Shown piece after piece: positions 15,788 through 50,622 of a stretch of 64,000 bases of DNA. The notes below the pieces were generated by a model. The model saw only the letters and a program-made list of their open reading frames with translations, did no database searches and was not told the DNA's origin. The DNA lies in the NCBI GenBank assembly GCA_964476185.1, contig CAYYZO010000002.1:25116-89115 (forward strand), in the 5' to 3' direction. Position numbers and translations under genes: made by a program. The first letter of the stretch is position 1, and each line of letters starts with the position of its first letter. The DNA comes from an uncultured Myxococcales bacterium. Its GTDB lineage: Bacteria; Desulfobacterota; Binatia; UBA1149; CAITLU01.

Positions 15788-16333
15788 GTGCGCGTTCTCG
15801 GCGTCGATCCCGGGACCATCCGCTGCGGGTGGGGCGTCGTCGAGATCGAGGGTTCCCGGCTTGCCCGGGTGGCCTCCGGCGTGATCGAGGCCGGCCGTGG
15901 TGAGATCGCGACCCGGCTCCTGGTCGTGCACCGCGGACTCCTCGACGTGATCTCGTCCCACGCTCCGGAGGTCTTCAGCCTCGAGCGCAACTTTCTCGCC
16001 CGCAACATCCAGAGCGCGTTCCGCCTCGGGGAAGCGCGCGGTGTCGCAATGGCGGCCGCGGCGTCCGCGGGCCTGCCCGTGAGCGAATACACTCCCATGA
16101 TGATCAAGAAGGCCGTGGTCGGGTACGGAAAGGCCGAGAAGGCGCAGGTCCAGACCGCCGTCCAGAGGTTGCTCTCGCTCGAAGCGCTGCCCGCTGTGGA
16201 TGAAGCCGACGCGTTGGCTGCCGCGCTGTGTCATGGCCTCGCCGGCGTGTTCGAAGCGCGACTGGCGGACGCCGTGTCGCTGCGCGGCCTGACCCGTGTG
16301 CGCGGCCGGAGCTGGCGTTCGGTGCGCGGGTGA
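15788..16333 (+). CDS. ruvC: Holliday junction resolvase RuvC
   Basis: VRVLGVDPG...GYGKAEK RuvC motifs. Start placed at GTG 15788, 5 nt after the strong RBS AAGGAGAGG; the ATG at 15758 is within or upstream of the RBS. Confidence 0.9.
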   Translation: MRVLGVDPGTIRCGWGVVEIEGSRLARVASGVIEAGRGEIATRLLVVHRGLLDVISSHAPEVFSLERNFLARNIQSAFRLGEARGVAMAAAASAGLPVSEYTPMMIKKAVVGYGKAEKAQVQTAVQRLLSLEALPAVDEADALAAALCHGLAGVFEARLADAVSLRGLTRVRGRSWRSVRG

Positions 16334-16343
16334 TCGTGCGCGC

Positions 16344-16928
16344 ATGATCGGTCGCCTTCGCGGAACCCTCGAAGTCCGCCAGCCCGGGGAGGTGCTCGTC
16401 GATGTCGGCGGCGTCGGCTACCTGGCGTTCATCTCGCTCCAGACGTTCTCGACGCTGCCGCCGGCCGGTGGGCAGGTCGTGCTCGAAGCCGTGACGGTGC
16501 TGCGCGAGAACGCGCTCGAGCTGTTCGCGTTCGCGACCGCGGCGGAGAAAGACGCGTTTCAACTCCTGAGGTCGGTGTCCGGGATCGGCCCCCGCATGGC
16601 GGTCGCGATCCTGTCGGGCATCCGGGTCGACGAACTCGCGACGGCGGTCGCCACCGGCAATGCCTCGCGCCTGACCGCGATCCCGGGCATCGGGCGCAAG
16701 ACCGCCGAGCGGATGTTGATCGACCTTCGCGGCAAGCTCGACGTCCCCGCGGCGGCGACGCCCGGCGGCAGGGTCGAGGAGGATGCGGTGTCGGCGCTGG
16801 TCGGATTGGGGTACAAGCGCGGCGAAGCCGAGAAGGCCGTTCGCGCCGCTACGAAGGACGGCGAGGCGAGCCTGGAGGACGTGCTCCGGCGCGCGCTCGG
16901 CAGCCTCGTGAGGGAGGCGGCGCGCTGA
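16344..16928 (+). CDS. ruvA: Holliday junction branch migration protein RuvA
   Basis: MIGRLRGTL...GVGY...[15 protein letters not shown]. Confidence 0.9.
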
Positions 16929-16941
16929 GCGCGCCCGGACG

Positions 16942-18006
16942 ATGCCCGGCCAGGATTCCAAGGATTCGATCCGCGACCCGCGGGCACCGCTCGCCGACGC
17001 GACCGACCCGGCCGCCGCCGGCGACGAGCGCAGCGGCGAGGTCAGCCTTCGTCCCGAGACGCTCGACGACTACGTCGGCCAGCCGGCGGTCCGGCGCAAC
17101 CTCGACATCGCGATCCGGGCCGCGCGCGGCCGAAGCGAATGCCTCGACCACCTGCTGCTGGTCGGCCCTCCCGGCCTCGGCAAGACCTCGCTCGCGCACA
17201 TCGTCGCGCGTTCGATGGGAGGCCGGCTGCACCCGACGAGCGGTCCCGTCATCGAGAAAGCCGGCGACCTCGCCGCGATCCTGACCTCGCTCGAGCGCGG
17301 CGACGTGCTCTTCATCGACGAGATCCACCGGCTCGGCAAGGCGATCGAGGAGATCCTCTACCCGGCGATGGAGGACTACCGGATCGACATCGTGATCGGC
17401 GAGGGGCCGTCCGCGCGCTCGATCTCGCTCGCGCTGCAGCGCTTCACGCTGGTCGGCGCGACGACGCGCTCGGGAATGCTGAGCTCGCCGCTGCGGTCGC
17501 GGTTCGGGAACACGTACACGCTGGAGTTCTACGACGACGAAGAACTCGCCGAGATCGTGCGGCGTTCGGCGGCCCGGCTCGGCGTCGTGATCGAGGGTTC
17601 GGCTGCGCTGCTCGTCGCGGCGCGCGCGCGCGGGACGCCGCGCGTGGCCAACCGCCTGCTTCGCCGGCTTCGCGACTACGCCGAAGTGAAGGCCTCGGGC
17701 CGCGTCACGCGGGAGGTGGCGGCCGCCGGCCTCGACCTGCTCGGCGTGGACGCGGCCGGCTTCGACGCGATGGACCGCCGGTTGCTGCTCGCGCTCGTCG
17801 ATACGTTCGGCGGCGGCCCCGTCGGCATCGACACGCTGGCCGCCGCGCTCGGCGAGGACGCCGACACCCTCGAGGAAGTGCACGAGCCGTACCTGATCCG
17901 CTGCGGCTTCGTCCAGAAGACGCCGCGCGGGCGCGTCGCGACGCTGCGCGCCTGGAGCCACCTCGGACGCCAACCGTCGCGCGAGCAGCGTTCGCTGTTC
18001 ACCTGA
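16942..18006 (+). CDS. ruvB: Holliday junction DNA helicase RuvB
   Basis: AAA+ Walker A ([19 protein letters not shown]), Walker B ([10 protein letters not shown]) and the sensor region. Confidence 0.95.
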
Positions 18007-18011: not shown

Positions 18012-20300
18012 ATGACGACCGGTTCCGGCGACACGTCCAGGAACGGCGCCAGCGGCGATCCCGCGGCCGGAGGCGGCGGGCCCGATTCCAACGAGGACGC
18101 GCGGCGCGCGGCGACCGCCGACCTGCTCGCGAGGCGCGCTGCCGAGTCGTCGCGTCGCCGGCGCGAGAGCTTCATCGTGCTCGCGGCGGGCATCGCCGCG
18201 GCGGTGTTCGGGCTCTGGGGCACGGGTGGGCGCAGCGGCGGCGCCGGCAACGTCTTCTCGTTCCTGCTGATCAACCTCAACATCGTCCTGCTGCTGCTGG
18301 TCGCGTTCCTCGTCGTGCGCAACCTGCTGCGGCTGGTGCTCGAGCGACGGCGAGGGATCCTCGGCAGCCACCTGCGCTCTCGGCTCGTGCTCGCGTTCGT
18401 GACGATCGCGCTGTTCCCGGCGACGGTGATGGTGATCGTCTCCTATGCGTTCGTCAGCAACGGCATCGACGACTGGCTCGGGCGCGAGGTCGAAGAATCG
18501 CTCGACGCCGCCTACAGCCTCGCCCGCATCTACTACCGCTCGACGGCCGACCGCACTCACGCGCACGCGACGGCCCTCGCGGCCGACATCGCCAGGGACG
18601 ACCTGCTCGCGTCGTCGCGGCGGGACGAGCTCGAGCGCCGGATCGCCGAGGAGCAGCGCATCCACGACCTCGCGACGATCGAGGTCCTGGGTCCCGACGG
18701 GACGCCGATCGTCGCGATGTTCCGCGGCCTGCCCACCGTCGCCGCCCGCAGCCCGTCCGACGCGGAGATGATCGACGCCGTGCGCCGCGGCGACTCGCCG
18801 ACGCGCGTCGACACCGAGGGCGCGACCGACGTGATCCGCGGGGCGGCGCCGGTCGCCGGCGCCGACGGCTCGCTGGCGGCCGTCGTGATCGTCGACACGA
18901 CGGTGGCCGAGAGCCCGCGCGCGTGGAGCGCGCAGATCCTGAACTCCTTCCGCGAGTTCCGGCGGCTCGCGCTGAGCAAGCAGCCGTTCCGCAACCTGTA
19001 CCTCGTCACGCTGCTGTTGGCCTCGCTGGTCGTCGTGTTCTCGGCGACCTGGCTCGGGCTCTACCTCGCGCGCGGGGTCACCGAACCGATCGGGCGGCTC
19101 GCCGAGGCCACGCGGGACGTCGCCGCCGGCCGGCTCGACGTCGCGCTGCCGGAAGAGGGCGGCGACGAGGTCGCGACGCTCGTGCGCGGGTTCAACGCGA
19201 TGATCGCCCAGCTCGCGCGCGGCCGCGAGGCGCTCGACGAGCGCCGCGTCTACATCGAGAACGTGCTCGCGAACATCGGCGCGGGCGTCGTCTCGATCGG
19301 CAGCGACGGGCGGATCGGCACGATCAACCCGGCGGCGCTGGCGATGCTGGGCCTCCGCGAGGAAGACGTGATCGGGCGCGTCGCCGACGTCGTGTTCGAG
19401 GAGGCGCGGCTCGTCGAGGTCGCCGGCCTGCTGCGCGACGTTCGCGCGGGCCGGCGCGAGGCGGGCAGCGGCGTCAACCTGCGCCGGGACCAGGACGAGC
19501 GAACGATCGTCGCGACGGCGACGAGCCTTCGTCGCGGCGCCGCCGTCACCGGCCAGGTGCTGTTCTTCGAGGACGTCTCGCAGATGCAGCAGGTGCAGCG
19601 GATGGAAGCCTGGCGCGAGGTCGCGCGCCGCATCGCCCACGAGATCAAGAACCCGCTGACCCCGATCCAGCTCTCCGCCCAGCGCCTCGAGCGCCGGCTC
19701 GGAGGCCGCCTCGCGGACCCGGAGTCGGCCGTGCTGCGCGAGTCGGTCGCGACGATCGTGTCGGAGGTCGACGGGCTGAAGAAGCTCGTCAACGAGTTCT
19801 CACAGTTCGCCCGGATGGGCAGCGGCGACAAGGCGCCCGAGGACTTGAGCCTGGTCGTCGACGAAGCGCTGCAACTGTATCGGCAGTCGCATCCGGACAT
19901 CGCGATCGAGTTGCACGCGTCCCCGGGCCTACCACCGGTGCGGATGGACCGCGACGCGGTCCGCCGCGCGCTGACGAACTTGATCGAGAACGCCGTCGCC
20001 GCGGTCTGGGCGATGCCCGACGAGCCGCGCCGGATCGACGTGATCACGCGCCACGACCCGGTGTTGTCGCGCGTCGTGCTCGAGGTCGCCGACACGGGGG
20101 CCGGCATCCCGCGGGAGGTGCGGGCGCGCATCTTCGAGCCGTATTTCTCGACCAAAGCCGACGGGACCGGACTCGGGCTGGCGATCGTCGCCTCGATGGC
20201 GGCCGACCATCACGCCTACCTGCGCGTCCGGCAGAACGAGCCGCGCGGCACGCGCTTCGTGATTGAGTTTCCGGCGACGCACGCGCAGCATCGCGCCTAG
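18012..20300 (+). CDS. ntrY: NtrY-type sensor histidine kinase (4 TM, HAMP, PAS, HisKA, HATPase)
   Basis: N-terminal TM helices, a HAMP domain, an H-box (IAHEIKNPLTPIQLSAQRLERR), N/G boxes (LTNLIENAV..., DTGAGIP, GTGLGLAIV). Starts 6 nt after the ruvB stop. Confidence 0.85.
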   Translation: MTTGSGDTSRNGASGDPAAGGGGPDSNEDARRAATADLLARRAAESSRRRRESFIVLAAGIAAAVFGLWGTGGRSGGAGNVFSFLLINLNIVLLLLVAFLVVRNLLRLVLERRRGILGSHLRSRLVLAFVTIALFPATVMVIVSYAFVSNGIDDWLGREVEESLDAAYSLARIYYRSTADRTHAHATALAADIARDDLLASSRRDELERRIAEEQRIHDLATIEVLGPDGTPIVAMFRGLPTVAARSPSDAEMIDAVRRGDSPTRVDTEGATDVIRGAAPVAGADGSLAAVVIVDTTVAESPRAWSAQILNSFREFRRLALSKQPFRNLYLVTLLLASLVVVFSATWLGLYLARGVTEPIGRLAEATRDVAAGRLDVALPEEGGDEVATLVRGFNAMIAQLARGREALDERRVYIENVLANIGAGVVSIGSDGRIGTINPAALAMLGLREEDVIGRVADVVFEEARLVEVAGLLRDVRAGRREAGSGVNLRRDQDERTIVATATSLRRGAAVTGQVLFFEDVSQMQQVQRMEAWREVARRIAHEIKNPLTPIQLSAQRLERRLGGRLADPESAVLRESVATIVSEVDGLKKLVNEFSQFARMGSGDKAPEDLSLVVDEALQLYRQSHPDIAIELHASPGLPPVRMDRDAVRRALTNLIENAVAAVWAMPDEPRRIDVITRHDPVLSRVVLEVADTGAGIPREVRARIFEPYFSTKADGTGLGLAIVASMAADHHAYLRVRQNEPRGTRFVIEFPATHAQHRA

Positions 20301-20338
20301 CCCCGGGACCGAGGGTCCCAGGGGCTCCGAGAGCACGC

Positions 20339-21628
20339 ATGGAAAGCGGAAGCATCCTGATCGTGGACGACGACGCGGCGGTGCGCGACAGCATCGGCGC
20401 GGTGCTGGCCGACGAGGGCTTCCGCGTCAGCTACGCGAACGACGGCGGGGAGGCGCTCGCGAGCGCCGGCCGCGAACGTCCCGACCTCGTGCTGCTCGAC
20501 GTCTGGCTGCCCGGGATGGACGGCATCCAGGTCCTGCAGCAGCTTCGCGAAGGGCACGAGGGACTGCCCGTCATCGTCATCTCCGGGCACGGCAACATCG
20601 AGACGGCGGTGCGGGCGACGAGGCTGGGCGCGGTCGGCTTCATCGAGAAGCCGTTCACGATCGACGGCCTGCTCGAGGCGGTGTCGGGCGCGTTGCAGCG
20701 CGCCCGACCGGCCAGGGAGGGAGCGGCAGCGGAGGAGGCGAGGCCTGCGGTCCCGGACGACGGCCCGGCCGCCGCGTCGATCGTCGCCGGCCGGCCCGTG
20801 CGCCAGCGGACCGTCGCGCGTTCCGTCGTCGGCGCGGGCCTCGGCCTGCACAGCGGCGCGCGGACGGGCATCATCCTGCAGCCGACTCCTCCGGGAAGCG
20901 GCATCGTCTTCAGCAGCGTTTCCGTCGGCGGCGCCGTCGAAGCCGACGTGGACAACGTCGATTCCACCGGCTACGCGACGACGCTGTTCAAGAAGGGGCT
21001 CGCGGTTCGCACGGTCGAGCACCTGATGGCGACGCTGCATGCGTACGGCATCACGAACCTGCTCGTGAAGATCGAAGGCGAAGTGCCGATCCTCGACGGC
21101 TCGGCGGTCGAGCTCTGCGAGCTGCTCGAGCAGGCCGGCATCGACGAGCAGGACGCGACGCTGCCGTCGCTGGTGGTCACCGAGGAGATCCGCCTCGAGC
21201 CCGGGCCGGACCAGTTCCTGGTCCTGCGGCCCTACGACGGACTGCGAATCCGCTACGAGCTCTCGTATCCGGAACCGGTCGGCGACCAGACCTACGTTTT
21301 CACGATGCGCGACGCGCGCGACTTCCGTCGCGAGATCGCGCCGGCGCGCACGTTCGGGTTCGTCGAGGAGATCCGCGCGCTCGAGAGCGCCGGGCTGGGG
21401 CAGGGCGGCCAGCTCGGCAACTTCATCCTGATCGGCGAGAAGGGGATCGTGAACACCGAGCTGCGGTTTCCCGAAGAACTCGCGCGTCACAAGATCCTCG
21501 ACATCCTCGGCGACTTCTACCTGCTCGGCGCGCCGATCCGCGGCGAGATCCACGCCCGCAAGACCGGGCACTCGCACAACGTTGCGATGGTGCGCCGGCT
21601 CCGCGAGATGCTGCGCGGCGCGCGCTGA
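20339..21628 (+). CDS. lpxC: Fusion protein: NtrX/NtrC-type response-regulator receiver domain plus full-length UDP-3-O-acyl-GlcNAc deacetylase LpxC
   Basis: Residues 1-120 form a REC domain with DD, the phospho-acceptor D in LVLLDVWLPGMDG, T/S in VIVISGHG and K in IEKP (NtrC-like). A roughly 35-aa A/P/R-rich linker follows. Residues about 154-429 align collinearly with LpxC from its residue 3 (RQRTVARSVVGAGLGLHSG...TVEHLMATLHAYGI...ARTFGF...HKILDILGDFYLLGAPIRG...KTGHSHN). There are no stops between the domains. Confidence 0.85.
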   Translation: MESGSILIVDDDAAVRDSIGAVLADEGFRVSYANDGGEALASAGRERPDLVLLDVWLPGMDGIQVLQQLREGHEGLPVIVISGHGNIETAVRATRLGAVGFIEKPFTIDGLLEAVSGALQRARPAREGAAAEEARPAVPDDGPAAASIVAGRPVRQRTVARSVVGAGLGLHSGARTGIILQPTPPGSGIVFSSVSVGGAVEADVDNVDSTGYATTLFKKGLAVRTVEHLMATLHAYGITNLLVKIEGEVPILDGSAVELCELLEQAGIDEQDATLPSLVVTEEIRLEPGPDQFLVLRPYDGLRIRYELSYPEPVGDQTYVFTMRDARDFRREIAPARTFGFVEEIRALESAGLGQGGQLGNFILIGEKGIVNTELRFPEELARHKILDILGDFYLLGAPIRGEIHARKTGHSHNVAMVRRLREMLRGAR

Positions 21629-21759
21629 GCGCCCGCCCGCCGGCCGCGCCCTCGATCGGGTACCCGCTTCCTGGCGCCGGGGCAGGCGCGAACGGGCGCG
21701 GGTGACTCGATTCCGTAACCGGTTCCAGCCTTCGACTGCTTTCTGCCGGGCCAGGCGGA

Positions 21760-41725: not shown

Positions 41726-42505
41726 GTGAGCGCTCGCATCCATCCGACCGCCGTCGTCGATCCCGCCGCGCGGCTCGACGACGGCGTCGTGGTCGGCCCC
41801 TACGCGATCGTCGGTGCCGGCGTGGTCGTCGGGGCCGACACGGAGATCGGGCCGCACGTGGTCGTCGATGGACTGACGACGATCGGCGCCCGCTGCCGCT
41901 TCGTCGGCCAGTCGTCGATCGGCACGCCCCCGCAGGACCTCAAGTACCAGGGCGGCCCGACCCGCCTCGAGATCGGCGACGACAACATCGTGCGCGAGTT
42001 CGTCACGATGAACCGTGCGACCGAGCACGGCGGCGGCGTGACCAGGATCGGGAGCCACGGGATGTTCATGGCGTACGCGCACGTGGCGCACGACTGCCGG
42101 GTCGGCGACCACGTCGTGATGGCGAACGGCGCGACGCTGGCTGGGCACGTCATGATCGAGGACCACGCGATCGTCGGCGGACTCGTCGCGATCCACCAGT
42201 TCGTTCGCATCGGCGAGTCGGCGATCCTCGGCGGCGGCGCGATGGTCACGCTCGACGTCGTGCCGTTCGCGATGGCGGCCGGCGACCGCGCCGTGCTGCA
42301 CGGCCTCAACCTGGTCGGCCTCAAGCGGCGCGGGTTCTCCGCGGAGACGATCGCCGCGCTGCGCTCGGCGTACCGCACGATCTTCCGTTCCGGCCTGCGC
42401 CTGCGCGACGCCCTCGAGGCGCTGCGCGCCGAGGCCGCCGACGATCCGCGCGTCGCCCACCTCGTGCGCTTCATCGAGCAGTCCGGGCGCGGGATCTGCC
42501 GGTGA
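41726..42505 (+). CDS. lpxA: UDP-N-acetylglucosamine O-acyltransferase LpxA
   Basis: Left-handed beta-helix hexapeptide repeats, collinear with E. coli LpxA (IHPTAVV...DLKY.GGPTR.EIGD.N.IRE.VT..R.T..GGG.T..G....M...H.AHDC). Confidence 0.9.
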   Translation: MSARIHPTAVVDPAARLDDGVVVGPYAIVGAGVVVGADTEIGPHVVVDGLTTIGARCRFVGQSSIGTPPQDLKYQGGPTRLEIGDDNIVREFVTMNRATEHGGGVTRIGSHGMFMAYAHVAHDCRVGDHVVMANGATLAGHVMIEDHAIVGGLVAIHQFVRIGESAILGGGAMVTLDVVPFAMAAGDRAVLHGLNLVGLKRRGFSAETIAALRSAYRTIFRSGLRLRDALEALRAEAADDPRVAHLVRFIEQSGRGICR

Positions 42506-43392
42506 GCGGACCCGGCGGCGCGCCCGCCGGGGGCAGCGCTCCCGGCGCCCGCGAGACGATCGGGCTCGTGGCCGGCAACGGCCGCTTCCCGCTGCTGTTC
42601 GCGCGCGAGGCGCGCGCGCGCGGCCACCGCGTCGCGGCGGTCGCCCACCGCGGCGAGACCGACGAGGCCATCGAGGGCGAGGTCGACGAGCTGACGTGGG
42701 TTCGCGTCGGCCAGCTCGGGCACCTGATCCGCGCGCTGAAGGCCTCGGGCGCCCGCCGTGCCGTGATGGCCGGCGGCATCGACAAGGTGCGGTCGCTGTC
42801 CCAGGTCCGGCCCGACGTGCGCGGGATGCTGTTCCTCGGCCGCGCCTACGCGTCCTCGGGCCACGGCGACGACGCGCTGCTGCGCGCGCTCGCCGCCGAG
42901 CTGGAAGGCGAGGGGATCGAGGTCGTCCCGTCGACGATCTTCCTCGAGTCGCTGCTCGCGACGCCGGGGCGCATCGCGGGGCCGAAGCCGTCGTCGCAGG
43001 CGCTCGCCGACATCCGCACGGGCTTCCGCGTGCTCGCCGCGCTCGGCGAGGAAGACGTGGGCCAGAGCGTGGTCGTCGAACGCGGCGTGGTCCTCGCCGT
43101 CGAGGCGGTCGAGGGCACCGACGAGGCCGTGCGTCGCGGCGGACGTCTCGGCCGCGGCAGCGCGGTGCTGGTCAAGGCGGCCAAGCACGGCCAGGACATG
43201 CGCTTCGACGTGCCGGCCGTCGGGCCGGCGACGGTCCGCACGATGGTCGAGGCCGGCGCCGTCGTGCTCGCGCTCCAGGCCGGCGCGACGCTGCTGATCG
43301 ATCGCGACGAGCTCGTCGAGGCTGCTGCCGGCGCCGGGATCGCGGTCGTCGGCTGCACGGCCGGCGGCGCCGTCGCGGGGCTGTCGGCATGA
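42502..43392 (+). CDS. lpxI: UDP-2,3-diacylglucosamine pyrophosphatase LpxI (DUF1009)
   Basis: DUF1009 / LpxI-like N and C domains (IGLVAGNGRFP..., VVERGVVLAVEAVEGTDEAVRRGG). GTG start overlaps the lpxA TGA. Position between lpxA and lpxB. Confidence 0.75.
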   Translation: MSGPGGAPAGGSAPGARETIGLVAGNGRFPLLFAREARARGHRVAAVAHRGETDEAIEGEVDELTWVRVGQLGHLIRALKASGARRAVMAGGIDKVRSLSQVRPDVRGMLFLGRAYASSGHGDDALLRALAAELEGEGIEVVPSTIFLESLLATPGRIAGPKPSSQALADIRTGFRVLAALGEEDVGQSVVVERGVVLAVEAVEGTDEAVRRGGRLGRGSAVLVKAAKHGQDMRFDVPAVGPATVRTMVEAGAVVLALQAGATLLIDRDELVEAAAGAGIAVVGCTAGGAVAGLSA

Positions 43393-44432
43393 ACGGCCGG
43401 AGCGACGCCGTGCGCGCGGGCGTCGCCGGCGCCGGCCATCTCGGCGCACTGCACGCCGCGAAGTACGCCGCCGCGCTCGGCGCGCTCCTCGTCGGCGTCT
43501 ACGATCCCGACGCGGCGCGCGCGCGCGACGTCGCCGCGCGCACGGGCTGCCGCGCGTTCGATTCGCTCGACGCGCTTCTCGCGGAAGTCGACTGCGCGAG
43601 CGTCGCGGCGGTGACCGCGGCTCACCACGAGGTGGCCGGCGAGGCGATCGCGCGCGGCGTGCACGTGCTCGTCGAGAAGCCGCTGGCGGCGACGCTCGCG
43701 GAGGCGCGCTCCCTGGTGGAGGCGGCCGAGGCCGCCGGCGTGCTTCTCCAGGTCGGGCACCTCGAGCGCTTCAACCCCGCGTTCGCGGACCTGCCGCGCG
43801 TCGTCGGCCATCCCCGCTTCATCGAGTGCCACCGCCTCGCCCCGTTCGCCGGCCGCGGCGCCGACACCGACGTGATCTTCGACGTGATGATCCACGACCT
43901 CGACCTGATCGCGTTCGTCGTCGGCCGGCCGCTGGTGTCGGCCGAGGCGATCGGCGTGCCGGTGCTGAGCGACCACGCCGACATCGCGAACGCGCGCCTG
44001 CGTTTCGAGGGCGGCTGCATCGCGAACGTGACCGCGAGCCGCGTCTCGCTCAAGCGCGAGCGGCGCCTGCGGATCTTCCAGGAGGACGCGTACGTCGCCG
44101 TCGACTTCGACGCGCACAGCCTGCGCATCGTGCGCCGCCGGGCCGGCGCCGGCCCGATCGACCCGTCGTCGCCGATGGACGCGAGCGAACTCGAGGAGCG
44201 CGGCGTCGCCGAGGTCGCCGAGGCGCTGCGCGACGAGATCGCCGCGTTCGCCGCCGGCGGGCGCGGCCGCCGCGGCGGCGCGGCGGCCGAGGGCGGCGAG
44301 GCCGGAGCCGTAGCGGTGAGCGGACGCGAGGCGCTCGTCGCGCTGGAGATCGCCGAACGCGTTCGCGACTCGGCCGCGCGGGAAACGGGGGGCCGCGGTC
44401 CCGGCGAGACGCCGGCCGGCGAGGCGCCGTGA
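43389..44432 (+). CDS. Gfo/Idh/MocA-family NAD(P)-dependent oxidoreductase embedded in the lpx operon (GnnA-like)
   Basis: N-terminal Rossmann segment (VRAGVAGAGHLGALHA) and a GFO_IDH_MocA C-domain. ATGA coupling to lpxI and GTGA coupling to lpxB. Confidence 0.75.
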   Translation: MNGRSDAVRAGVAGAGHLGALHAAKYAAALGALLVGVYDPDAARARDVAARTGCRAFDSLDALLAEVDCASVAAVTAAHHEVAGEAIARGVHVLVEKPLAATLAEARSLVEAAEAAGVLLQVGHLERFNPAFADLPRVVGHPRFIECHRLAPFAGRGADTDVIFDVMIHDLDLIAFVVGRPLVSAEAIGVPVLSDHADIANARLRFEGGCIANVTASRVSLKRERRLRIFQEDAYVAVDFDAHSLRIVRRRAGAGPIDPSSPMDASELEERGVAEVAEALRDEIAAFAAGGRGRRGGAAAEGGEAGAVAVSGREALVALEIAERVRDSAARETGGRGPGETPAGEAP

Positions 44433-45571
44433 GCGGGAAGCGCATCCTGCTCGTCGCGGGCGAGGCCTCCGGCGACGCGCTCGGCGCCCGGCTCGCCGCG
44501 TCCCTTCGACGCGCCGACCCCTCCCTGGACCTCTACGGCGTCGCCGGCCCGGCGATGCGCGAAGCCGGCGTGCGCACGCTCGCGGGCACCGAGGAACTCA
44601 GCGTGATGGGCTTCGCCGAACTCGGTCGCGAGCTCGGCCGGGTGCTCGGCGTGCTGCGGATGCTCCGGCGCGAGCTTCGCGAGCGCTCGCCGGACCTGTT
44701 CGTGCCGATCGACTTCCCCGACTTCAACCTGCCGCTCTGTCGCAGCGCCAGCGGCGCGGGCGTGCCGGTGTTCTACTACGTGAGCCCCCAGATCTGGGCC
44801 TGGCGCCGCGGGCGCATCGACACGATCGCGCGCACCGTGCGACGCATGGTCGTGCTGTTCCCGTTCGAGGCCGAGCTCTACCGCGAGCGCGGCATCGACG
44901 CGCACTTCGTCGGCCACCCGCTCGCGGAGGACTGCCGCCCGACGCGCCCGCGCGAGCAGGTCCGCGCCGAGCTCGGCGTCGCGGGCGGACGCAGGCTCGT
45001 CGCGCTGTTGCCGGGCAGCCGCCGCCGTGAGGTCGAGACGATGCTGCCGGTCATGGCCGACGCGGCGGGCCGGCTCGGCCCGGACGTGGCCGCCGTGGTT
45101 GCCGAAGCTCCTGCGCTCGCTCCCGGGCTGGTGTCTTCCGTGCTCGCGGCGGTCCGGGCGCCGGCCGCGTCCGCGGCGGTCGCCACCCGGCGCGGGGACA
45201 CCTACAATCTGCTCGCCGCCGCGGACGCGGCCTTCGTGACATCGGGCACCGCCACGCTGGAGGCGGCGCTCGTCGGTTGTCCGGCGGTGGTGGCGTACAG
45301 GATGTCGGCTTTCAGCTATGCGCTCGCGCGCCGCCTCGTGAAGGTGCCGTACATCGCGATGCCGAACCTGCTGCTCGGCCGCCGCGTCGTTCCGGAACTC
45401 GTGCAGCACGACGCCGAGCCGGCCAGGCTGGCGGTCGAGGCGCGCCGCCTGCTCGACGACGCGGCCGAGCGCGAGCGGATGCTGGCCGACTTCGCCGAGA
45501 TCCGGGCGATGCTCGTCCGCCCGGGCGCGGCCGACCGCGCCGCCGCCCTCGCTTTGGAGCTGGTGCCCTGA
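44429..45571 (+). CDS. lpxB: Lipid-A-disaccharide synthase LpxB
   Basis: GT-B LpxB signature (ILLVAGEASGD...PIDFPDFNL...YYVSPQIWAWR). Confidence 0.9.
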   Translation: MSGKRILLVAGEASGDALGARLAASLRRADPSLDLYGVAGPAMREAGVRTLAGTEELSVMGFAELGRELGRVLGVLRMLRRELRERSPDLFVPIDFPDFNLPLCRSASGAGVPVFYYVSPQIWAWRRGRIDTIARTVRRMVVLFPFEAELYRERGIDAHFVGHPLAEDCRPTRPREQVRAELGVAGGRRLVALLPGSRRREVETMLPVMADAAGRLGPDVAAVVAEAPALAPGLVSSVLAAVRAPAASAAVATRRGDTYNLLAAADAAFVTSGTATLEAALVGCPAVVAYRMSAFSYALARRLVKVPYIAMPNLLLGRRVVPELVQHDAEPARLAVEARRLLDDAAERERMLADFAEIRAMLVRPGAADRAAALALELVP

Positions 45572-47313
45572 ACGCGCGCGAGGCCACGCGCCGGCTGCTC
45601 GCGTTCCTGCGGCCCTACCTGTGGCCGCAGTTCGCCGGCGCGCTCGCCTGCATGCTGACCTACAGCGCGATGTCCGGGGCGGTGCCCTGGCTCGTGCGCA
45701 GCCTGATCGACGACGTGTTCGCGGCGCGCGACGAACGCATGCTCGACGTGCTCCCTGGCCTCATCGTCGTCGTGTTCCTCGTTCGAGCGGGCGTGAACTT
45801 CGGCCAGGCCTACCTCGGCGAGTGGGTCGGCGAGAGCGTCGTCTTCGACCTGCGCGCGCGCCTGCAGCAGAAGGTGCAGCGCCTTCCGGTGTCGTTCTTC
45901 GACCGCACGGCCTCCCAGCAGGTCGTCTCCCGCATGACGAGCGACGTGCTGCTGGTGCGCCAGGCGCTGACCGAGGGGGCCGCGTCGGTGCTGCGCGACC
46001 TGACGACGATGGCCGTGCTGGTCGTCGTCGCGTTCTGGCTCGACGCGACGCTGGCGGTGATCGCGTTCTTCGTTCTGCCGCTGATCGTGCTGCCGGTGGC
46101 GGCGCTGTCGCGCAGGATGCGCTCGCTGTCGCGGCGCGGCCTCGACACGCTCGGCGGCCTGTCGGCGCTGCTGCTCGAGACCGTGCTCGGCGCGCGCGTC
46201 GTCAAGGCGTTCGGCATGCAGGACTACGAGCGCGAGCGCTTCGAGGGCGAGAACCGCCGGTTGCGCCGCCTGCACCTGAAGAGCGCGCGGATCGGGGCCG
46301 TCGGCGCGCCGATGACCGAGGTGCTCGCGGCCGTCGGCATCGCCGGCACGCTCTGGTACGGCGGGACGTCGGTGTTCGCGGGAGGTCGCACGGCGGGCGG
46401 CTTCCTCGCGTTCATGACGACGCTGGTGCTGATCTACGAACCGGCCAAGAAGCTCGCGCGCACGAACACCGTCGTGCAGGCCGGGCTCGGCGCGGCCGAG
46501 CGCATCTTCGCGCTGCTCGACCATCCCGAGGAGGACGAGGGCGCCGCCGAACCCGGCGCGCCGCGCCTCGCGCTCGAGGACGCGATCCGCTTCGAGGGCG
46601 TTCGCTTCGCGTACGACTCCCAGGAGGTCCTGCACGGGATCGATCTCGAGGTCCGCGCCGGCGAGGTCGTCGCGCTGGTCGGCCCGAGCGGCGGCGGCAA
46701 GACGACGATCGCGGACCTGATCCCGCGTTTCTACGACGCCACCGGCGGGCGCATCACGCTCGACGGCCGCGACCTGCGCGAGTTGCCGCTCGCGAGCCTG
46801 CGGGCGAGCATCGCGGTCGTCACGCAGCACACGTTCCTGTTCAACGACAGCGTGCGGGCGAACATCGCGTACGGCCGCGCGGACTGCGACGAGGCCGCGC
46901 TTCGCGGCGCGGCCGAGGCGGCCCACGCCGCCGAGTTCATCGAGAAGCTTCCCCACGGCTACGACACCGTCGTCGGCGAGATGGGCGTGCAGCTGTCGGG
47001 CGGGCAGCGCCAGAGGATCGCGATCGCGCGCGCGCTGCTCAAGGACGCGCCGATCCTGATCCTCGACGAGGCGACGAGTTCGCTGGACTCCGAGTCGGAG
47101 CGCGCGGTGCAGGCGGCCGTCGCACGGCTGATGGCCGGCCGCACCACGCTCGTGATCGCGCACCGCCTGTCGACGATCCGGCGCGCCGACCGCATCGTCG
47201 TCGTCGAGGACGGCCGCATCGTCGAGTCCGGGACGCACGACGAGTTGATGGAAGGCGGCGCGCTGTACCGCCGCCTGCACGAGCTGCAGATCGTCGAGGA
47301 AGCGGCGGCGTGA
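45568..47313 (+). CDS. msbA: Lipid A export ABC transporter MsbA (permease-ATPase)
   Basis: Six TM helices plus an ABC ATPase (GPSGGGKTT, LSGGQRQRIAIARAL, ILILDEATSSLD). Collinear with E. coli MsbA from residue about 10. No in-frame ATG/GTG/TTG near the expected N-terminus, so the start was provisionally placed at CTG 45568 right after the lpxB stop. Confidence 0.8.
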   Translation: MNAREATRRLLAFLRPYLWPQFAGALACMLTYSAMSGAVPWLVRSLIDDVFAARDERMLDVLPGLIVVVFLVRAGVNFGQAYLGEWVGESVVFDLRARLQQKVQRLPVSFFDRTASQQVVSRMTSDVLLVRQALTEGAASVLRDLTTMAVLVVVAFWLDATLAVIAFFVLPLIVLPVAALSRRMRSLSRRGLDTLGGLSALLLETVLGARVVKAFGMQDYERERFEGENRRLRRLHLKSARIGAVGAPMTEVLAAVGIAGTLWYGGTSVFAGGRTAGGFLAFMTTLVLIYEPAKKLARTNTVVQAGLGAAERIFALLDHPEEDEGAAEPGAPRLALEDAIRFEGVRFAYDSQEVLHGIDLEVRAGEVVALVGPSGGGKTTIADLIPRFYDATGGRITLDGRDLRELPLASLRASIAVVTQHTFLFNDSVRANIAYGRADCDEAALRGAAEAAHAAEFIEKLPHGYDTVVGEMGVQLSGGQRQRIAIARALLKDAPILILDEATSSLDSESERAVQAAVARLMAGRTTLVIAHRLSTIRRADRIVVVEDGRIVESGTHDELMEGGALYRRLHELQIVEEAAA

Positions 47314-48119
47314 GCGCGGACGCGAAGCACGAACCCGGCGAGGACGCGCGCGCGGCCGGGCCGCCCGTCGCGCCTCCGCGGCGCGAGCACGCCGCCGGCG
47401 ACGCTGCTGCGCGCCCGCAGCGCGGGCTCCGGCGGTTCGCGCCGGTCGCGCGCCTCGAGATCGCGGCGGCGGCGCTGGCCGTCCGCACGGTGCTCGTGCT
47501 GCTCGGCGCGACCGTGCGCTGGAGCCGGCACGGGAGCGAGGAACTCGAGCGCGCGTGGCAGACCGGCGAGCCCGTGCTGATGGCCTTCTGGCACGGCCGC
47601 TCGATCCTGCTGCCGTTCGTTTATCGCGGCCGCGGCGCCTGCATCATGAACAGCACGCACCGCGACGGCGAGATCGTCTCGCGCGTGCTCGCGCGTTTCG
47701 GGATCTCGGCGACGCGCGGCAGCTCGACGCGCGGCGGGGTCCCCGGTTTCCGCGGCCTGCTGCGCGCGAACCGGCGCGGTCTCGACCTCGCGCTGATCCC
47801 GGACGGTCCGCGCGGGCCGGCCGGCGTCGCGAAGGCCGGCGCCGCCGAGCTCGCGATCGCGACCGGGGCCCCGCTGTTCCCGATGGCGGTGAGTTGCTCG
47901 CGAGGCTGGAGGCTCGGGACCTGGGACCGGATGATGATCCCGCGCCCGTTCTCGCGCGTGGTGCTCGTCGTCGGCGAGCCGCTGCGCGCGACGACCGGCG
48001 CCGCCTCGTCGCGCGCCGGGGAGCGCGAGGCGCTTCGCGCCGAACTCGAGCGCCGCCTGCGGCGACTGACCGCCGAGGCCGACCGGCTCGCCGGTCGCGA
48101 GCCGGTCGAGGAAACCTGA
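47310..48119 (+). CDS. DUF374-family protein (lysophospholipid-acyltransferase-like; Kdo-transferase-associated)
   Basis: GTG start overlaps the msbA TGA. DUF374 core (LMAFWHGRSILLPF...MNSTHRDGEI...ALIPDGPRGP). Immediately upstream of waaA, as is typical for this family. Confidence 0.65.
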   Translation: MSADAKHEPGEDARAAGPPVAPPRREHAAGDAAARPQRGLRRFAPVARLEIAAAALAVRTVLVLLGATVRWSRHGSEELERAWQTGEPVLMAFWHGRSILLPFVYRGRGACIMNSTHRDGEIVSRVLARFGISATRGSSTRGGVPGFRGLLRANRRGLDLALIPDGPRGPAGVAKAGAAELAIATGAPLFPMAVSCSRGWRLGTWDRMMIPRPFSRVVLVVGEPLRATTGAASSRAGEREALRAELERRLRRLTAEADRLAGREPVEET

Positions 48120-49498
48120 TGCCGGCCGCGGACGGGGGAAGGGCGGCCGCCTCGGGGACGCCGGAGAGCAGCGCCGCCGCCGCGGCGCTGCTCGGCGCCG
48201 TGTACGCGGCGGCCGGAGCGGCGGCCGGAGCCTGGACGAGGCTGCGCGCGGCGAGGGCTCGCGGCACGACCGGCGCCGTCCTGTTCGAAGAGCGCCTCGG
48301 AAACTGGAGCGGCCACCGCGAGGCGGACGCGGCCTGGGTCTGGATCCACGGGGCGTCGGTCGGCGAAGCCGAGATCGCGGTCGCGCTGGCGCGCGCCGTG
48401 GCCGACCGGGTCGCCCCCGGCCTGCGTCTGGTCGTGTCCGCGACCACCGAAGCGGGAAGGGCTCGCGCCTCCCGCGAGGACTGGCTGGAAGCCCGTTATT
48501 TTCCGATCGATTACGCGACATTCTTGAAAAGGGTCCTGAAGCCGCGGCCACCGCTCCTGTTCGTCGCCGTCGAGACCGAGATCTGGCCGGCCGCCCTGGC
48601 CGAACTCGCGCGGCTCGGGGTGCCGACCGCGGTCGTCAACGCGCGGCTCTCCGAGCGTTCGCTGCCGTGGTATCGGCGTTTCGGCGCGCTGGTCGGGCCG
48701 CGCGTCGCCGCGCTCGACCGCGTGCTGGCGCGCGACGAGGAGGCGGCGCAGCGCTGGCGATCGATCGGCGCGGCCGCCGCAGCGGTGGAGGTCACCGGCA
48801 ACATCAAGTTCGACCTCGCCCTTCCTGGGCAAGCTGTCGGGACGGCGCCGCTTTTCGAGGCCAACCCGAGGCCGCTCGTGCTCGCGGCGTCGACCCACGA
48901 CGGCGAGGAGGAAGGGGTCCTCGACGCGTTCGTGGAACTGCGCCGCCGCCATCCCGACGCGCGGCTGCTGCTGGCGCCGCGGCACCCGCGCCGCGCCTCG
49001 GCACTGCTCGGCCTGGCGCGCTCGCGCTGGCTCGCGGCGGTCGGCTGGAGCGACATCGTCGGCATCGCCGGCGCGTCGCGGATTCCCGACGCCCCGATCG
49101 CGTGGCCGTCGCGGGTCGACGTGGTGGTGCTCGACCGGCTCGGCCTGCTGCGCGCCGCCTACGCGGCGAGCCGGGCCTGCTTCGTCGGCGGCAGCTGGGT
49201 CGAGGGCCCCGGCGGCCACAACCTGCTCGAGTCGGTGGTCGCCGCGTGTCCCGCCAGCGCCGGGCCCCGTCTCGGGAACGTCGGCGACCAGGTCGCCGTG
49301 CTCGACGAGCGCGGCGCGCTGCGCATCGTCGAGAACGCCACCGATCTGTCGAAGTTCTGGATGGAAGCGATCGATTCGCCGACTGTTTTGCGCGAGCGCT
49401 GCGACGCGGCCGGGCGCCTGCTCGAGCTCCGGCGCGGTGCGCTCGCCCGCAGCGCGGACGCGCTGGTCGTGCTGCTCCCGGCGGAGTGGCGCTCGTGA
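48119..49498 (+). CDS. waaA: 3-deoxy-D-manno-octulosonic acid (Kdo) transferase WaaA/KdtA
   Basis: GT30 N-domain (VWIHGASVGE) and a GT-B C-domain. The ATG overlaps the preceding TGA by 1 nt. Confidence 0.9.
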   Translation: MPAADGGRAAASGTPESSAAAAALLGAVYAAAGAAAGAWTRLRAARARGTTGAVLFEERLGNWSGHREADAAWVWIHGASVGEAEIAVALARAVADRVAPGLRLVVSATTEAGRARASREDWLEARYFPIDYATFLKRVLKPRPPLLFVAVETEIWPAALAELARLGVPTAVVNARLSERSLPWYRRFGALVGPRVAALDRVLARDEEAAQRWRSIGAAAAAVEVTGNIKFDLALPGQAVGTAPLFEANPRPLVLAASTHDGEEEGVLDAFVELRRRHPDARLLLAPRHPRRASALLGLARSRWLAAVGWSDIVGIAGASRIPDAPIAWPSRVDVVVLDRLGLLRAAYAASRACFVGGSWVEGPGGHNLLESVVAACPASAGPRLGNVGDQVAVLDERGALRIVENATDLSKFWMEAIDSPTVLRERCDAAGRLLELRRGALARSADALVVLLPAEWRS

Positions 49499-50622
49499 AC
49501 CGCAGGTCGGGCGAAGCGGCCGACGGACTCGAGTCGCTGTGGTACGGCGTGGCGGCCTGGTCGCGCGTCGCCCGGGCCGCGCTCGCTCCGCTTGCGGCTG
49601 CGTTCGGCGCGGCGTCGGCGCTGCGCGGCGCGCTCTACGATCGCGGGGTCGCCGCCGTGCGCCGGGCGCCGCGCCCGGTCGTCAGCGTCGGCAGCCTTCG
49701 GGTAGGCGGGGCCGGGAAGACCCCGTTCGTGCTCTGGCTCGTGGCGCGGCTGCAGCAGGAGGGCTACCGCCCGTGCATCGTCCTTCGCGGCTACGGAGGC
49801 GAGGCCGGCGCGTCGCCGATCCTGCTCGACGCCGAGTCGGCGACCGATCCGCGGGCAGTGGAAAGGGCCGGGGACGAGGCCGTGCTGCTCGCGCTCCGCA
49901 GCGGGGTTCCGGTCGTGGCCGGCGCCGACCGGCAGGCGGCGTGCGTGTTCGCGATCGCGCGGCTCGCCGGCACCGCGCGCGACCCGGACCTGTTCGTGCT
50001 CGACGACGGCTTCCAGCATCGCGCGCTGGCCCGCGACGTCGACATCGTGCTGGTGGCCGGCTCCGAGGCCTCCGAGCGGCTGCTGCCCGCCGGTCCGCTG
50101 CGCGAGGCGGCCGGCGCGCTCGCCCGCGCGGACGCCGTCGTGCTGGTCGCGGGAGAACCCGATCCGGCGTTCCTCGGCGCGAGGCCGCACGGCGCGCTCG
50201 CAGTGTGCGCGCGGACCCGCGCCCGGGCGCTCGTGCGCTCGGTCGGCGAAGCGGACGGGCAGCGGGAGGACGCCGGGCGGGACGTTCGCACGCTCGCGGG
50301 CCGCCGCGTCGTCGCGGTCGCGGCGATCGCGCGGCCGGGGCGGTTCCTGCGGGAACTCGAACGCCTCGGCGCGGTCGTCGTCGCCCGCGTGCTGCGCCGC
50401 GACCATCACCGCTACGACGCGGCGGACGTCGCGGAGATCGAGGCGGCCGCTGCCGCCGCGGACTTCGTCGTCACGACCGAGAAGGACCTCGTCAAGCTGC
50501 AGGCGATGCGACTCGGCGCGGCTCCCCTCGCGCTGCGCATCGAGCTGGAGGTCGACGACGGCGACGCGATCGTCGACCTCGTGCGCGCGCGTGCGCTGTC
50601 TCCCGCACGGTTTGACCGCTGA
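49495..50622 (+). CDS. lpxK: Tetraacyldisaccharide 4'-kinase LpxK
   Basis: P-loop VVSVGSLRVGGAGKTP and the LpxK fold. GTG start overlaps the waaA TGA. Confidence 0.9.
   Translation: MNRRSGEAADGLESLWYGVAAWSRVARAALAPLAAAFGAASALRGALYDRGVAAVRRAPRPVVSVGSLRVGGAGKTPFVLWLVARLQQEGYRPCIVLRGYGGEAGASPILLDAESATDPRAVERAGDEAVLLALRSGVPVVAGADRQAACVFAIARLAGTARDPDLFVLDDGFQHRALARDVDIVLVAGSEASERLLPAGPLREAAGALARADAVVLVAGEPDPAFLGARPHGALAVCARTRARALVRSVGEADGQREDAGRDVRTLAGRRVVAVAAIARPGRFLRELERLGAVVVARVLRRDHHRYDAADVAEIEAAAAAADFVVTTEKDLVKLQAMRLGAAPLALRIELEVDDGDAIVDLVRARALSPARFDR

Follow-up and report, generated by a model that had tools for sequence, protein, structure and literature searches.

In the window (the whole 64-kb stretch of DNA that was analyzed), we identified a gene that joins, within one reading frame, a phospho-receiver domain (REC) to a full-length LpxC deacetylase. 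This fusion is real and widespread; it is not peculiar to the locus of the window and marks a clade of LpxC proteins. LpxC, a major target for antibiotics, catalyzes the committed and rate-setting step of lipid A synthesis. We are slightly more inclined to accept than to reject a reading of the gene as a response regulator having LpxC as its output, in which a kinase would phosphorylate Asp54 of the receiver and thereby tune LpxC output.

Architecture of the REC-LpxC protein

The gene (20339..21628, forward strand; delimited by ORF reading and profiles) starts with an ATG and encodes 429 aa followed by a stop codon. As claimed in the preliminary description, it reads as one uninterrupted open frame, and neither a stop codon nor a frameshift, which we looked for between the REC and LpxC parts, is present. 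An identical protein (P0001) is carried on an NCBI contig of 106,558 bp. The two halves, which the same description had proposed to submit to a profile search, were both recovered in this way, the first as Response_reg (PF00072; aa 6-115, E 5.5e-32) and the second as LpxC (PF03331; aa 156-421, E 2.4e-81).

The receiver domain (20354..20683, forward strand) is of the NtrX/NtrC type. Its best NCBIfam match is the receiver of NtrX, with 136 bits over positions 3-130 only of the 452 positions of the NtrX equivalog NF051870 (REC + AAA+ + HTH), against a cut-off of 600; members of this family possess an AAA+ domain and a C-terminal Fis-type HTH, and neither is found in the window protein, in which Pfam detects no Sigma54_activat and no HTH_8. 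Since it has neither AAA+ nor HTH, the window protein, as judged from its sequence, would be unable to work as a transcription factor. Among solved structures, 4d6x and 5m7n, two entries for the NtrX receiver of Brucella, come nearest to the REC. The acidic pocket D10/D11, the phospho-acceptor D54 (codon 20498-20500, within the motif LLDVWLPGMDG), S82, F101, and K104 are all there, and the receiver is thus as intact as initially described. All six residues are invariant in 47 close homologs; in 43 fused proteins, across several phyla, D10, D11, D54, and K104 are again invariant, while S or T occupies position 82, and F or Y position 101. On alignment, a phosphorylatable Asp is kept at the position of D54 in 77 of 78 sequences, the exception being a cluster (P0424) with a Val. 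For the REC, AlphaFold2 (AF2) predicts a (beta-alpha)5 fold with pLDDT mostly of 82-98, the strands (5-9, 29-33, 50-54, 78-82, and 100-103) alternating with the helices (13-25, 36-46, 62-72, 87-95, and 108-122).

The LpxC deacetylase domain (20795..21625, forward strand; aa 153-429) covers positions 1-266 of the 268 of the Pfam profile, with 273.6 bits against a cut-off of 27, and scores 234.5 bits with the NCBIfam model TIGR00325 (lpxC), over its curated cut-off of 187.25. It aligns to residues 4-277 of P. aeruginosa LpxC and ends straight after the last helix, without the C-terminal tail that the enzymes of enterobacteria and Pseudomonas possess. The zinc ligands H228, H384, and D388 and the catalytic residues E227 and H411 are present, as are T338, F339, K385, and D392, in line with the full-length LpxC with intact zinc and catalytic motifs that had been announced. 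We take E227/H228 to be the counterparts of E78/H79 in E. coli LpxC, H384/D388 those of H238/D242, and H411 that of H265, assuming for the E. coli enzyme that His79, His238, and Asp242 (HKxxD) are the zinc ligands and that Glu78 and His265 are catalytic. E227, H228, H384, K385, D388, and H411 are invariant both in the 47 close homologs and in the 43 fused proteins, H411 being present in 42 of the latter and facing an alignment gap in the remaining one. The AF2 model displays the two-domain LpxC fold and, when compared with solved LpxC structures by Foldseek, gives TMt values of 0.82-0.93 and an rmsd of 1.6-3.0 A over around 275 columns (E down to 7e-32).

Between the two domains lies a linker (20705..20794, forward strand; approximately aa 123-152) which is rich in Ala, Pro, Arg, Gly, and Glu and varies in both sequence and length. 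This region is unconserved in the alignment of close homologs (A1), the stretch aligned to aa 121-155 spans 27-47 residues in 78 homologs, and aa 127-142 have an AF2 pLDDT below 50. A frameshift or a chimeric join could, in principle, have merged a separate response-regulator gene with lpxC, the source of the window being probably a metagenome-assembled genome and REC and LpxC lying in different frames at two of the 45 loci of the clade described below (L015 and L027). On the other hand, the same in-frame architecture is shared by hundreds of independent assemblies (NCBI, JGI, ENA, and Logan), isolates and contigs of more than 1 Mb included. An assembly or sequencing artefact is ruled out by this recurrence, and we give it practically no credence.

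Spread of the fusion

REC and LpxC are carried together by more than 350 protein clusters, in several phyla, and the search for the same architecture in related genomes, a check suggested beforehand, was therefore abundantly positive. The best 120 clusters (60-100% identity) all contain PF00072 and PF03331, except one truncated 337-aa entry. There are 120 further clusters in Thermoanaerobaculia and 120 in Desulfobulbales, including those of the cultured Desulfopila sp. IMCC35006 and Desulfoprunum benzoelyticum. With these cultured carriers and a small, soluble-looking protein, the fusion is experimentally reachable.

We also considered a genome sample of 80 LpxC loci from GTDB species genomes, taken among 600 listed matching stretches, which is a taxonomic sample and no census, leaves out the closest relatives, those more than 60% identical, and does not tell one lpxC from two per genome. 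Among these listed matches, every LpxC at least 48% identical to that of the window has a REC directly upstream, and so do three divergent LpxCs at 40-43% identity. In the resulting clade of 45 loci, REC is upstream in all 45, in frame in 43 and frame-shifted in two, and the other 35 of the 80 listed loci are stand-alone LpxCs. Fused and stand-alone LpxCs from the sampled loci form two clean groups in a midpoint-rooted NJ tree. The fused clade gathers Binatia, Syntrophobacter-type and other Desulfobacterota, Desulfobulbales, Nitrospinota, Thermodesulfovibrionia, and Acidobacteriota. Among the matches listed, no stand-alone LpxC occurs in records labelled Binatia, Thermoanaerobaculia, Nitrospinota, or Syntrophobacter-type, and the remaining lineages of the sample present stand-alone LpxCs only.

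Some candidates for unfused members of this clade were rejected. At the two frame-shifted loci, L015 and L027, tblastn places a REC immediately upstream of LpxC in another frame. The apparently stand-alone P0162, which is 54% identical, comes from an indel-ridden long-read contig in which the RuvB and kinase genes are also fragmented.

The adjacent kinase and the envelope genes

Directly upstream of the fusion lies a gene for an NtrY-type sensor histidine kinase (18012..20300, forward strand), of 762 aa with the start codon picked by coding score. The protein contains five Pfam domains, all above their cut-offs (NtrY_N, HAMP, PAS, HisKA, and HATPase_c), and an H-box, AHEIKNPLTP, with His548; a hydropathy scan reveals four hydrophobic (TM) segments and a periplasmic stretch of around 180 aa. 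No NtrY-specific NCBIfam model appears among its best 25 matches. The TAG stop codon of the kinase ends at 20300 and the ATG of the fusion is at 20339, leaving a spacer of 38 nt, as read from the sequence (20301..20338, forward strand), so that the four-TM NtrY-type kinase reported 38 nt upstream was found exactly there. From this adjacency, the kinase is the presumed phosphodonor of the REC; tblastn detects no further REC, NtrY-like kinase, AAA+ module, or NtrX-like gene in the 64-kb window.

The kinase gene follows, after a 5-nt gap, the tightly packed genes ruvC-ruvA-ruvB (15788..18006 on the gene map, forward strand), with which the kinase and REC-LpxC genes probably share an operon. Relatives (61-85% identity) repeat the order ruvCAB-kinase-REC-LpxC, and most of them also have yebC upstream. 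When the region from 15.3 to 22.8 kb was scanned for promoters and terminators, nothing exceeded the shuffled expectation save one promoter-like site, located upstream of a small ORF at 21811. In relatives from Binatia, the Syntrophobacter type, and Thermodesulfovibrionia, as well as in a 710-aa long form, an NtrY-type kinase is also found directly 5' of REC-LpxC, the two genes overlapping by 4-8 nt (4 nt in two relatives) or being separated by 3-14 nt. This pairing is not universal among the fusions, because no NtrY-like kinase adjoins them at the sampled loci of Acidobacteriota, Nitrospinota, Desulfomonile, and Desulfobulbales.

Twenty kb downstream of REC-LpxC, a lipid A/Kdo cluster (41726..50622, forward strand; Pfam) comprises lpxA, lpxI, an oxidoreductase gene, lpxB, msbA, a DUF374 gene, waaA, and lpxK, and holds no lpxC. 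It gives a pathway context to the fused LpxC. More broadly, Pfam identifies lolC/E, lolD, bamA, skp, lpxA, lpxI, lpxB, msbA, waaA, lpxK, and a Kdo/WaaP-family kinase between 36.8 and 52.8 kb, and the window is indeed as dense in lpx, Kdo, bam, and lol genes as had been noted.

By tblastn, no second LpxC is found in the 64-kb window. The fused LpxC, judging by its sequence, is probably the working UDP-3-O-acyl-GlcNAc deacetylase of the cell. It could also be a non-housekeeping paralog acting on another substrate, or a module sensing UDP-acyl-GlcNAc, with a canonical lpxC located elsewhere. Such a role would fit the Desulfobulbales branch, which departs at otherwise conserved LpxC positions (H171L, T338S, and G340N), and a Thermoanaerobaculia locus (L021) with a partial LpxC-like match 1 kb downstream. 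We consider it very unlikely: the window protein scores above the lpxC equivalog cut-off and keeps every catalytic and zinc residue, the other lpx genes of the window come without a second lpxC, and stand-alone LpxCs are absent, among the matches listed, from the Binatia, Thermoanaerobaculia, Nitrospinota, and Syntrophobacter-type records.

Probable origin from an NtrX-like regulator and proposed control of LpxC

The clade also includes relatives with longer forms, i.e., REC-AAA+-HTH_8-LpxC, REC-degenerate AAA-HTH-LpxC, and REC-HTH_8-LpxC. The N-terminal 450 aa of the long forms match the NtrX profile end to end, and two relatives carrying AAA+/HTH domains (P0122 and P0125) score 340 and 247 bits, below the NtrX cut-off of 600. 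Because same-clade relatives carry REC-AAA+-HTH-LpxC or REC-HTH-LpxC, the window protein most likely derives, on sequence comparison, from an ancient fusion in which an entire NtrX-like regulator (REC-AAA+-HTH) preceded LpxC, and stands at its reduced end. Several lineages would have dropped AAA+ and the DNA-binding domain, REC and LpxC being always retained; in the genome sample, AAA+ and HTH disappeared on more than one occasion, whereas REC was never lost from the clade. The fusion had been presented as standing in place of the usual arrangement, in which NtrY signals to NtrX. This is correct insofar as AAA+ and HTH are missing here, but the REC-AAA+-HTH-LpxC relatives make the protein a derivative of NtrX rather than a substitute for it. 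In the long forms, where the HTH is kept, the main role of the REC may be transcriptional, the control of the enzyme being secondary or absent. The series leading from REC-AAA+-HTH-LpxC to REC-HTH-LpxC and to REC-LpxC would act as a "Rosetta stone" that connects NtrY/NtrX with LpxC, a connection that does not rest on the genetic evidence obtained in Rhodobacter and Caulobacter.

That evidence is transcriptional: NtrYX represses lpxC transcript levels in R. sphaeroides, where the link is indirect, and in Caulobacter, and it is also tied to the amount of LPS (PMC12444477; PMC7240162). In D. vulgaris, lpxC is the only target of the NtrC-family regulator DVU2934 (Rajeev et al. 2011, PMC3333781). 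The DVU2931/DVU2934 pair, from a relative within Desulfobacterota, resembles the present system in that it is a two-component system devoted to LpxC, and differs from it by binding DNA upstream of a separate lpxC, where we find a single polypeptide; it plausibly represents an unfused precursor state. With NtrY/NtrX of alphaproteobacteria and Neisseria, the fusion shares the NtrY kinase architecture, the NtrX-like receiver and, in relatives, a full NtrX-like module before LpxC. Besides lacking AAA+ and HTH, however, the window protein stays at 136 bits, and the long forms at 247-340 bits, against the NtrX cut-off of 600.

An NtrX-like regulator of lpxC transcription could simply have fused to its target and then shed its AAA+ and HTH, leaving a co-expression device or an evolutionary remnant in which the REC is a phosphate sink or inert and LpxC is constitutively active. 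The existence of HTH-bearing long forms, the documented links between NtrC/NtrX-type regulators and lpxC transcription (PMC12444477, PMC7240162, PMC3333781), and the many fusions devoid of an adjacent kinase all speak for such an origin. An inert remnant, however, would not hold D10, D11, D54, S/T82, and K104 across phyla and hundreds of clusters, nor would the REC be expected to outlast, throughout the sampled clade, AAA+ and HTH domains that were lost repeatedly. We therefore find it distinctly improbable.

In the response-regulator reading that we favor, the membrane-bound NtrY-type kinase would sense a periplasmic or redox signal, the phosphate would pass from the kinase to Asp54, and the resulting change in the receiver would be relayed to LpxC through a REC-LpxC packing surface or through receiver dimerization. 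Phosphorylation would thus alter LpxC, in either direction. In CheB, the receiver lies packed against the active site as long as it is unphosphorylated. By analogy, a CheB-like gating of the deacetylase by phosphorylation is plausible, because the phospho-residues are strictly conserved across phyla, because the kinase and fusion genes stay neighbors, with the 4-nt overlap seen in two relatives, and because the pTM of the AF2 model of the fusion (0.85, with a pLDDT of 88.4) exceeds what two domains on a free tether would give. Solved LpxC structures reach a TM of only 0.56-0.61 against the full-length model (normalized to full length); a pTM of 0.85, where around 0.6 would be expected from LpxC alone, suggests indirectly that a packing of REC with LpxC is confidently predicted, wherever it is located, and that it may be, in the model, as defined as that of CheB.

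The receiver could instead set the amount or the place of LpxC without touching catalysis, phosphorylation exposing or hiding a degradation signal, as in RssB- and CpdR-type receivers, or anchoring LpxC to the membrane kinase; such a mechanism would take the place of the proteolytic control exerted by FtsH/LapB in enterobacteria. LpxC is controlled mainly by its level in E. coli and by partners in other species (PMC12444477), the fused LpxC has no C-terminal tail beyond its last helix, and the linker is long, disordered, and variable. Yet AF2 predicts a fixed inter-domain arrangement and no free tag, and no conserved protease or adaptor gene was found beside the fusion in the neighborhoods of relatives that we examined. 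We hold this alternative to be unlikely.

A broader extension of the favored reading can be conceived, which we rate as somewhat less likely than not: phosphorylation of an NtrX-type receiver would directly switch, independently of proteolysis, the sole LpxC of several phyla, NtrY/NtrX would be at root an ancient system of LPS and envelope homeostasis, and the puzzling indirect effect of alphaproteobacterial NtrYX on lpxC would be an unfused remnant of this circuit. The phyla concerned would be Binatota, many Desulfobacterota, Nitrospinota, and part of Acidobacteriota and Nitrospirota. If the favored reading is true, the fused receiver provides outer-membrane biogenesis, in large and mostly uncultured groups, with a direct and reversible signaling input.

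LpxC is known to be controlled post-translationally by FtsH/LapB(YciM)/YejM proteolysis in Enterobacteria, by Lon in some alphaproteobacteria, and by MurA-LpxC activation in P. aeruginosa. To our knowledge, every characterized control of LpxC goes through such separate proteins or through transcription. These partners, and the C-terminal degron of the E. coli enzyme, contrast with the fusion, whose sequence presents no tail and a covalently attached, phosphorylatable module. Response regulators with an enzymatic output are already known as a class. Like the fusion, CheB (receiver and methylesterase), the GGDEF proteins PleD and WspR, the HD-GYP protein RpfG, and RssB associate an N-terminal receiver, a flexible linker, and a C-terminal enzyme, with a cognate kinase nearby; LpxC, a zinc amidase of lipid A synthesis, is unrelated to their outputs. 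We found no paper presenting LpxC as the output of a response regulator and no description of the REC-LpxC fusion in the literature searched, which included a 2025 review on lipid A regulation and extended to papers outside subscription-only access; to that extent the fusion is undescribed. Another natural fusion of LpxC is the bifunctional LpxC-FabZ (NF009667), whose LpxC half is matched by the LpxC of the window, at 202 bits against a cut-off of 465; its partner is a C-terminal enzyme of the pathway, whereas that of the window protein is an N-terminal signaling domain.

A receiver domain fused in frame to LpxC

We found that the open reading frame at 20339..21628 (+), in a window of 72% G+C, runs without interruption from its ATG start and encodes a 429-aa protein in which Pfam detects both a receiver domain (REC; aa 6-115, E 5.5e-32) and an LpxC domain (aa 156-421, profile positions 1-266 of 268, E 2.4e-81). 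The two are joined by a low-complexity linker (around aa 123-152, RARPAREGAAAEEARPAVPDDGPAAASIVAGRP) and neither a stop nor a frameshift separates them, so that the in-frame fusion announced in the preliminary description is borne out. The LpxC part is full-length, as had been proposed. Indeed, besides the Pfam profile, residues 4-277 of P. aeruginosa LpxC (solved structures) align with the C-terminal part, and the lpxC equivalog TIGR00325 (NCBIfam) scores 234.5 bits against a curated cut-off of 187.25. The receiver is of the expected NtrX type, its top NCBIfam match being the NtrX receiver and its nearest solved structures the Brucella NtrX receiver entries 4d6x and 5m7n. In a 47-sequence alignment, D10, D11, D54, S82, F101 and K104 of the receiver are invariant, as are E227, H228, T338, F339, H384, K385, D388, D392 and H411 of LpxC, in agreement with the intact phospho-acceptor and catalytic motifs first read from the sequence; the linker varies in both length and sequence. 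The window protein thus belongs to both the LpxC and the receiver family, showing every testable defining feature of each, and it lies outside the NtrX family since it carries neither AAA+ nor HTH domain.

AF2 models built from 47- and 78-sequence alignments reach a mean pLDDT of 82.8 and 88.4 and a pTM of 0.79 and 0.85, respectively. In the latter, pLDDT falls below 50 only at linker aa 127-142 and at a loop (aa 352-357), and the receiver adopts the canonical (beta-alpha)5 order. Foldseek comparison of the model with solved LpxC structures gives TM scores of 0.82-0.93 when normalised to the target and 0.56-0.61 when normalised to the 429-aa query. Because a pTM as high as 0.85 would hardly be expected without a confident prediction of where REC lies relative to LpxC, the model suggests a defined inter-domain packing. 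A fusion without any regulatory coupling appears quite improbable to us.

Distribution and origin of the fusion

The fusion is no artefact. Among 5.8 billion proteins, a word-indexed search found an NCBI protein identical to that of the window and at least 119 further clusters with 60-89% identity to it. Both Pfam domains are recorded for all the listed clusters except one truncated 337-aa entry; their only source name is 'UDP-3-O-acyl-N-acetylglucosamine deacetylase', and most derive from MAGs of Candidatus Binatia or 'Deltaproteobacteria'. Further protein searches yielded at least 120 clusters in Thermoanaerobaculia and at least 120 in Desulfobulbales, all with REC and LpxC domains. We also sampled one genome per GTDB species, using the LpxC-domain alignment as query, and analysed by tblastn the best 80 loci of at least 600 stretches. 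Wherever the LpxC is 48% or more identical to that of the window, a receiver lies directly upstream, as it does at three divergent loci at 40-43% (L045, L051 and L058); the remaining 35 of the 80 (37-44% identity) carry stand-alone LpxCs. REC and LpxC share a frame at 43 loci, and the frame is shifted at two (L015 and L027), most simply through assembly error. At these two MAG loci the parts are adjacent, and a real split or a pseudogene is the alternative.

In a midpoint-rooted neighbour-joining tree of the sampled loci, fused and stand-alone LpxCs form two clean groups. P0162, a cluster considered as a stand-alone member of the clade, was rejected as an artefact of an error-ridden long-read contig. 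Among the record titles of sampled carriers are Candidatus Binatia, Binataceae, Syntrophobacter, Syntrophobacteraceae, Thermodesulfobacteriota, Desulfomonile, Nitrospina, Nitrospinota, Thermodesulfovibrionia, Thermoanaerobaculia, Holophagae, Aminicenantes and Desulfocapsaceae. The carriers include an isolate, Desulfopila sp. IMCC35006, and Desulfoprunum benzoelyticum (Desulfobulbales) is a second cultured carrier. The 43 fused proteins from these loci all keep D10, D11, D54, K104 and the LpxC catalytic set, with S or T at position 82 and F or Y at position 101. In the 78-sequence alignment, Val replaces D54 in a single cluster, P0424 (Thermoanaerobaculia-type, 45 member sequences, VVFLVIWLPDR at this site), which may be a phosphorylation-independent variant.

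An exhaustive HMMER search over 1.84 billion representatives (50% identity) placed REC-LpxC proteins of about 430 aa among the nearest relatives of the window LpxC, together with proteins of 650-736 aa and 490-505 aa. Among these long forms, Pfam reads P0122 as REC-Sigma54_activat-AAA_lid-HTH_8-LpxC, and P0123 and P0133 as REC-HTH_8-LpxC, while the AAA+ domain is degraded in P0125, P0130 and P0138. Over its first 450 aa, P0122 matches positions 4-452 of the 452 in the NtrX profile with 340 bits, below the equivalog cut-off of 600, and by this profile match we call such modules NtrX-like rather than NtrX. Source names place the long forms in 'Deltaproteobacteria' MAGs, Entotheonellia and Nitrospinota. 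As they are interspersed among short forms in the tree of sampled loci, the simplest reading of this distance tree would be that an NtrX-like regulator fused to LpxC once, long ago, and that AAA+ and HTH were then lost repeatedly.

The upstream kinase and the proposed control of LpxC

The REC-LpxC ATG lies 38 nt after the TAG stop of the NtrY-type kinase gene (18012..20300, +), an arrangement already noted in the preliminary description. The kinase carries NtrY_N, HAMP, PAS, HisKA and HATPase_c domains (Pfam), an H-box AHEIKNPLTP and four hydrophobic segments, the last two of which are about 180 aa apart. In relatives at 61-85% identity, the junction between the two genes is a 4-nt overlap or a 3-14 nt gap. 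An NtrY-like kinase is also immediately upstream of the fusion in Binatia, in Syntrophobacter-type bacteria, in the 710-aa group (on 3.9-4.3 Mb contigs, with an 8-nt overlap), at L014 and at one Thermodesulfovibrionia locus; tblastn found none within 6 kb at the Acidobacteriota, Nitrospinota, Desulfomonile and Desulfobulbales loci. In the window, tblastn found no second LpxC, receiver, NtrY-like kinase or AAA+ module, so the adjacent kinase is the only visible partner of REC-LpxC there. That the fused LpxC is a non-housekeeping paralog or a sensor seems very improbable to us.

Functional links between NtrC/NtrX-type systems and LpxC are already known at the transcriptional level, from work on NtrYX and DVU2934. 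A 2025 review on the regulation of lipid A (PMC12444477) names NtrYX as an inhibitor of lpxC transcription in R. sphaeroides and C. crescentus. In a strain without ntrYX, lpxC transcripts rise 8.8-fold and LPS increases; as no binding site for NtrX was found at lpxC, this influence is indirect (Lemmer et al., PMC7240162). In D. vulgaris, lpxC is the single target of the regulator DVU2934 (Rajeev et al., PMC3333781). The covalent fusion itself appears undescribed in the open-access literature, where we found no description of it, and the words receiver, fusion and fused are absent from the 2025 review (PMC12444477).

We propose that D54 is probably phosphorylated by the adjacent kinase and that the phosphorylated receiver would alter LpxC output, through the packing surface or dimerisation; the whole chain is, in our judgement, slightly favoured. 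REC-LpxC would then work like CheB and other enzyme-output response regulators, although LpxC is not among the output domains described for them. Since NtrYX represses lpxC in alphaproteobacteria, there is a weak hint that phosphorylation might lower this output. Control by REC of LpxC stability or localisation, instead of catalysis, is rather unlikely. The fusion suggests that, in several large phyla, signalling acts directly on the committed step of LPS synthesis, and it ties NtrY/NtrX to LpxC by independent, comparative evidence. This hypothesis is approachable with cultured carriers or purified protein.

Surrounding genes and divergent relatives

ruvC, ruvA, ruvB and the kinase gene (15788-20300) follow one another with gaps of 5-13 nt, the gap between ruvB and the kinase gene being 5 nt. 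Relatives at 61-85% identity share the order ruvCAB, NtrY-type kinase, REC-LpxC and then a convergent type II secretion operon, most of them with yebC upstream too. As the ruvCAB-kinase order is kept down to 61% identity, this envelope-related two-component pair appears to be co-transcribed with the Holliday-junction resolution genes. The type II secretion operon of the window is complete (22693-34966, - strand; secretin, GspE, GspF, pseudopilins and GspK/L/M-like genes) and converges on the REC-LpxC gene, as in all Binatia-type relatives examined. About 1 kb separates them (21629-22692), which the closest relative, L090, does not have. Within this stretch lie a promoter-like, AT-rich patch (TTGACT-16 nt-GAAAAT, 21768-21795), in surroundings of 72% G+C, and a 190-aa open reading frame (21811-22383) with a low coding score and no Pfam match.

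The envelope-gene context described earlier is located at 36.8-52.8 kb (lolC/E, lolD, bamA, skp, lpxA, lpxI, lpxB, msbA, waaA, lpxK and a Kdo/WaaP-family kinase gene). In the bamA-skp-lpxA cluster (38730-50622), the usual lpxD and fabZ are missing between skp and lpxA and lie elsewhere in the genome, and lpxC is 20 kb upstream, as the REC fusion. LpxI (42568-43392) stands in for LpxH and precedes a GFO/IDH/MocA oxidoreductase gene, lpxB, msbA, a DUF374 gene, waaA and lpxK. At L008 (3916-10008), a locus of the 710-aa form, the fusion comes after a LapA-domain gene, mutS, a DUF4390 gene and the kinase gene, and within 10 kb it is followed by lolA, rseP-like and ftsH genes. In E. coli, LapA shares an operon with LapB, a regulator of LpxC.

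The Desulfobulbales-type loci L045, L051 and L058 carry deep-branching REC-LpxCs in which GLHSG is changed to GLLSG and ARTFGF to ARSFNTF. This branch is 81-100% conserved among the best 120 clusters (with Desulfopila, Desulforhopalus, Desulfoprunum and Desulfobulbaceae among their labels), and its substrate or activity may differ. Finally, the Thermoanaerobaculia locus L021 has a second, partial LpxC-like match (4392-4673), about 1 kb downstream of REC-LpxC. It is 45% identical to the LpxC query over aa 178-268 of the latter and may represent a fragment, a duplicated copy or a portion of a different gene related to LpxC.
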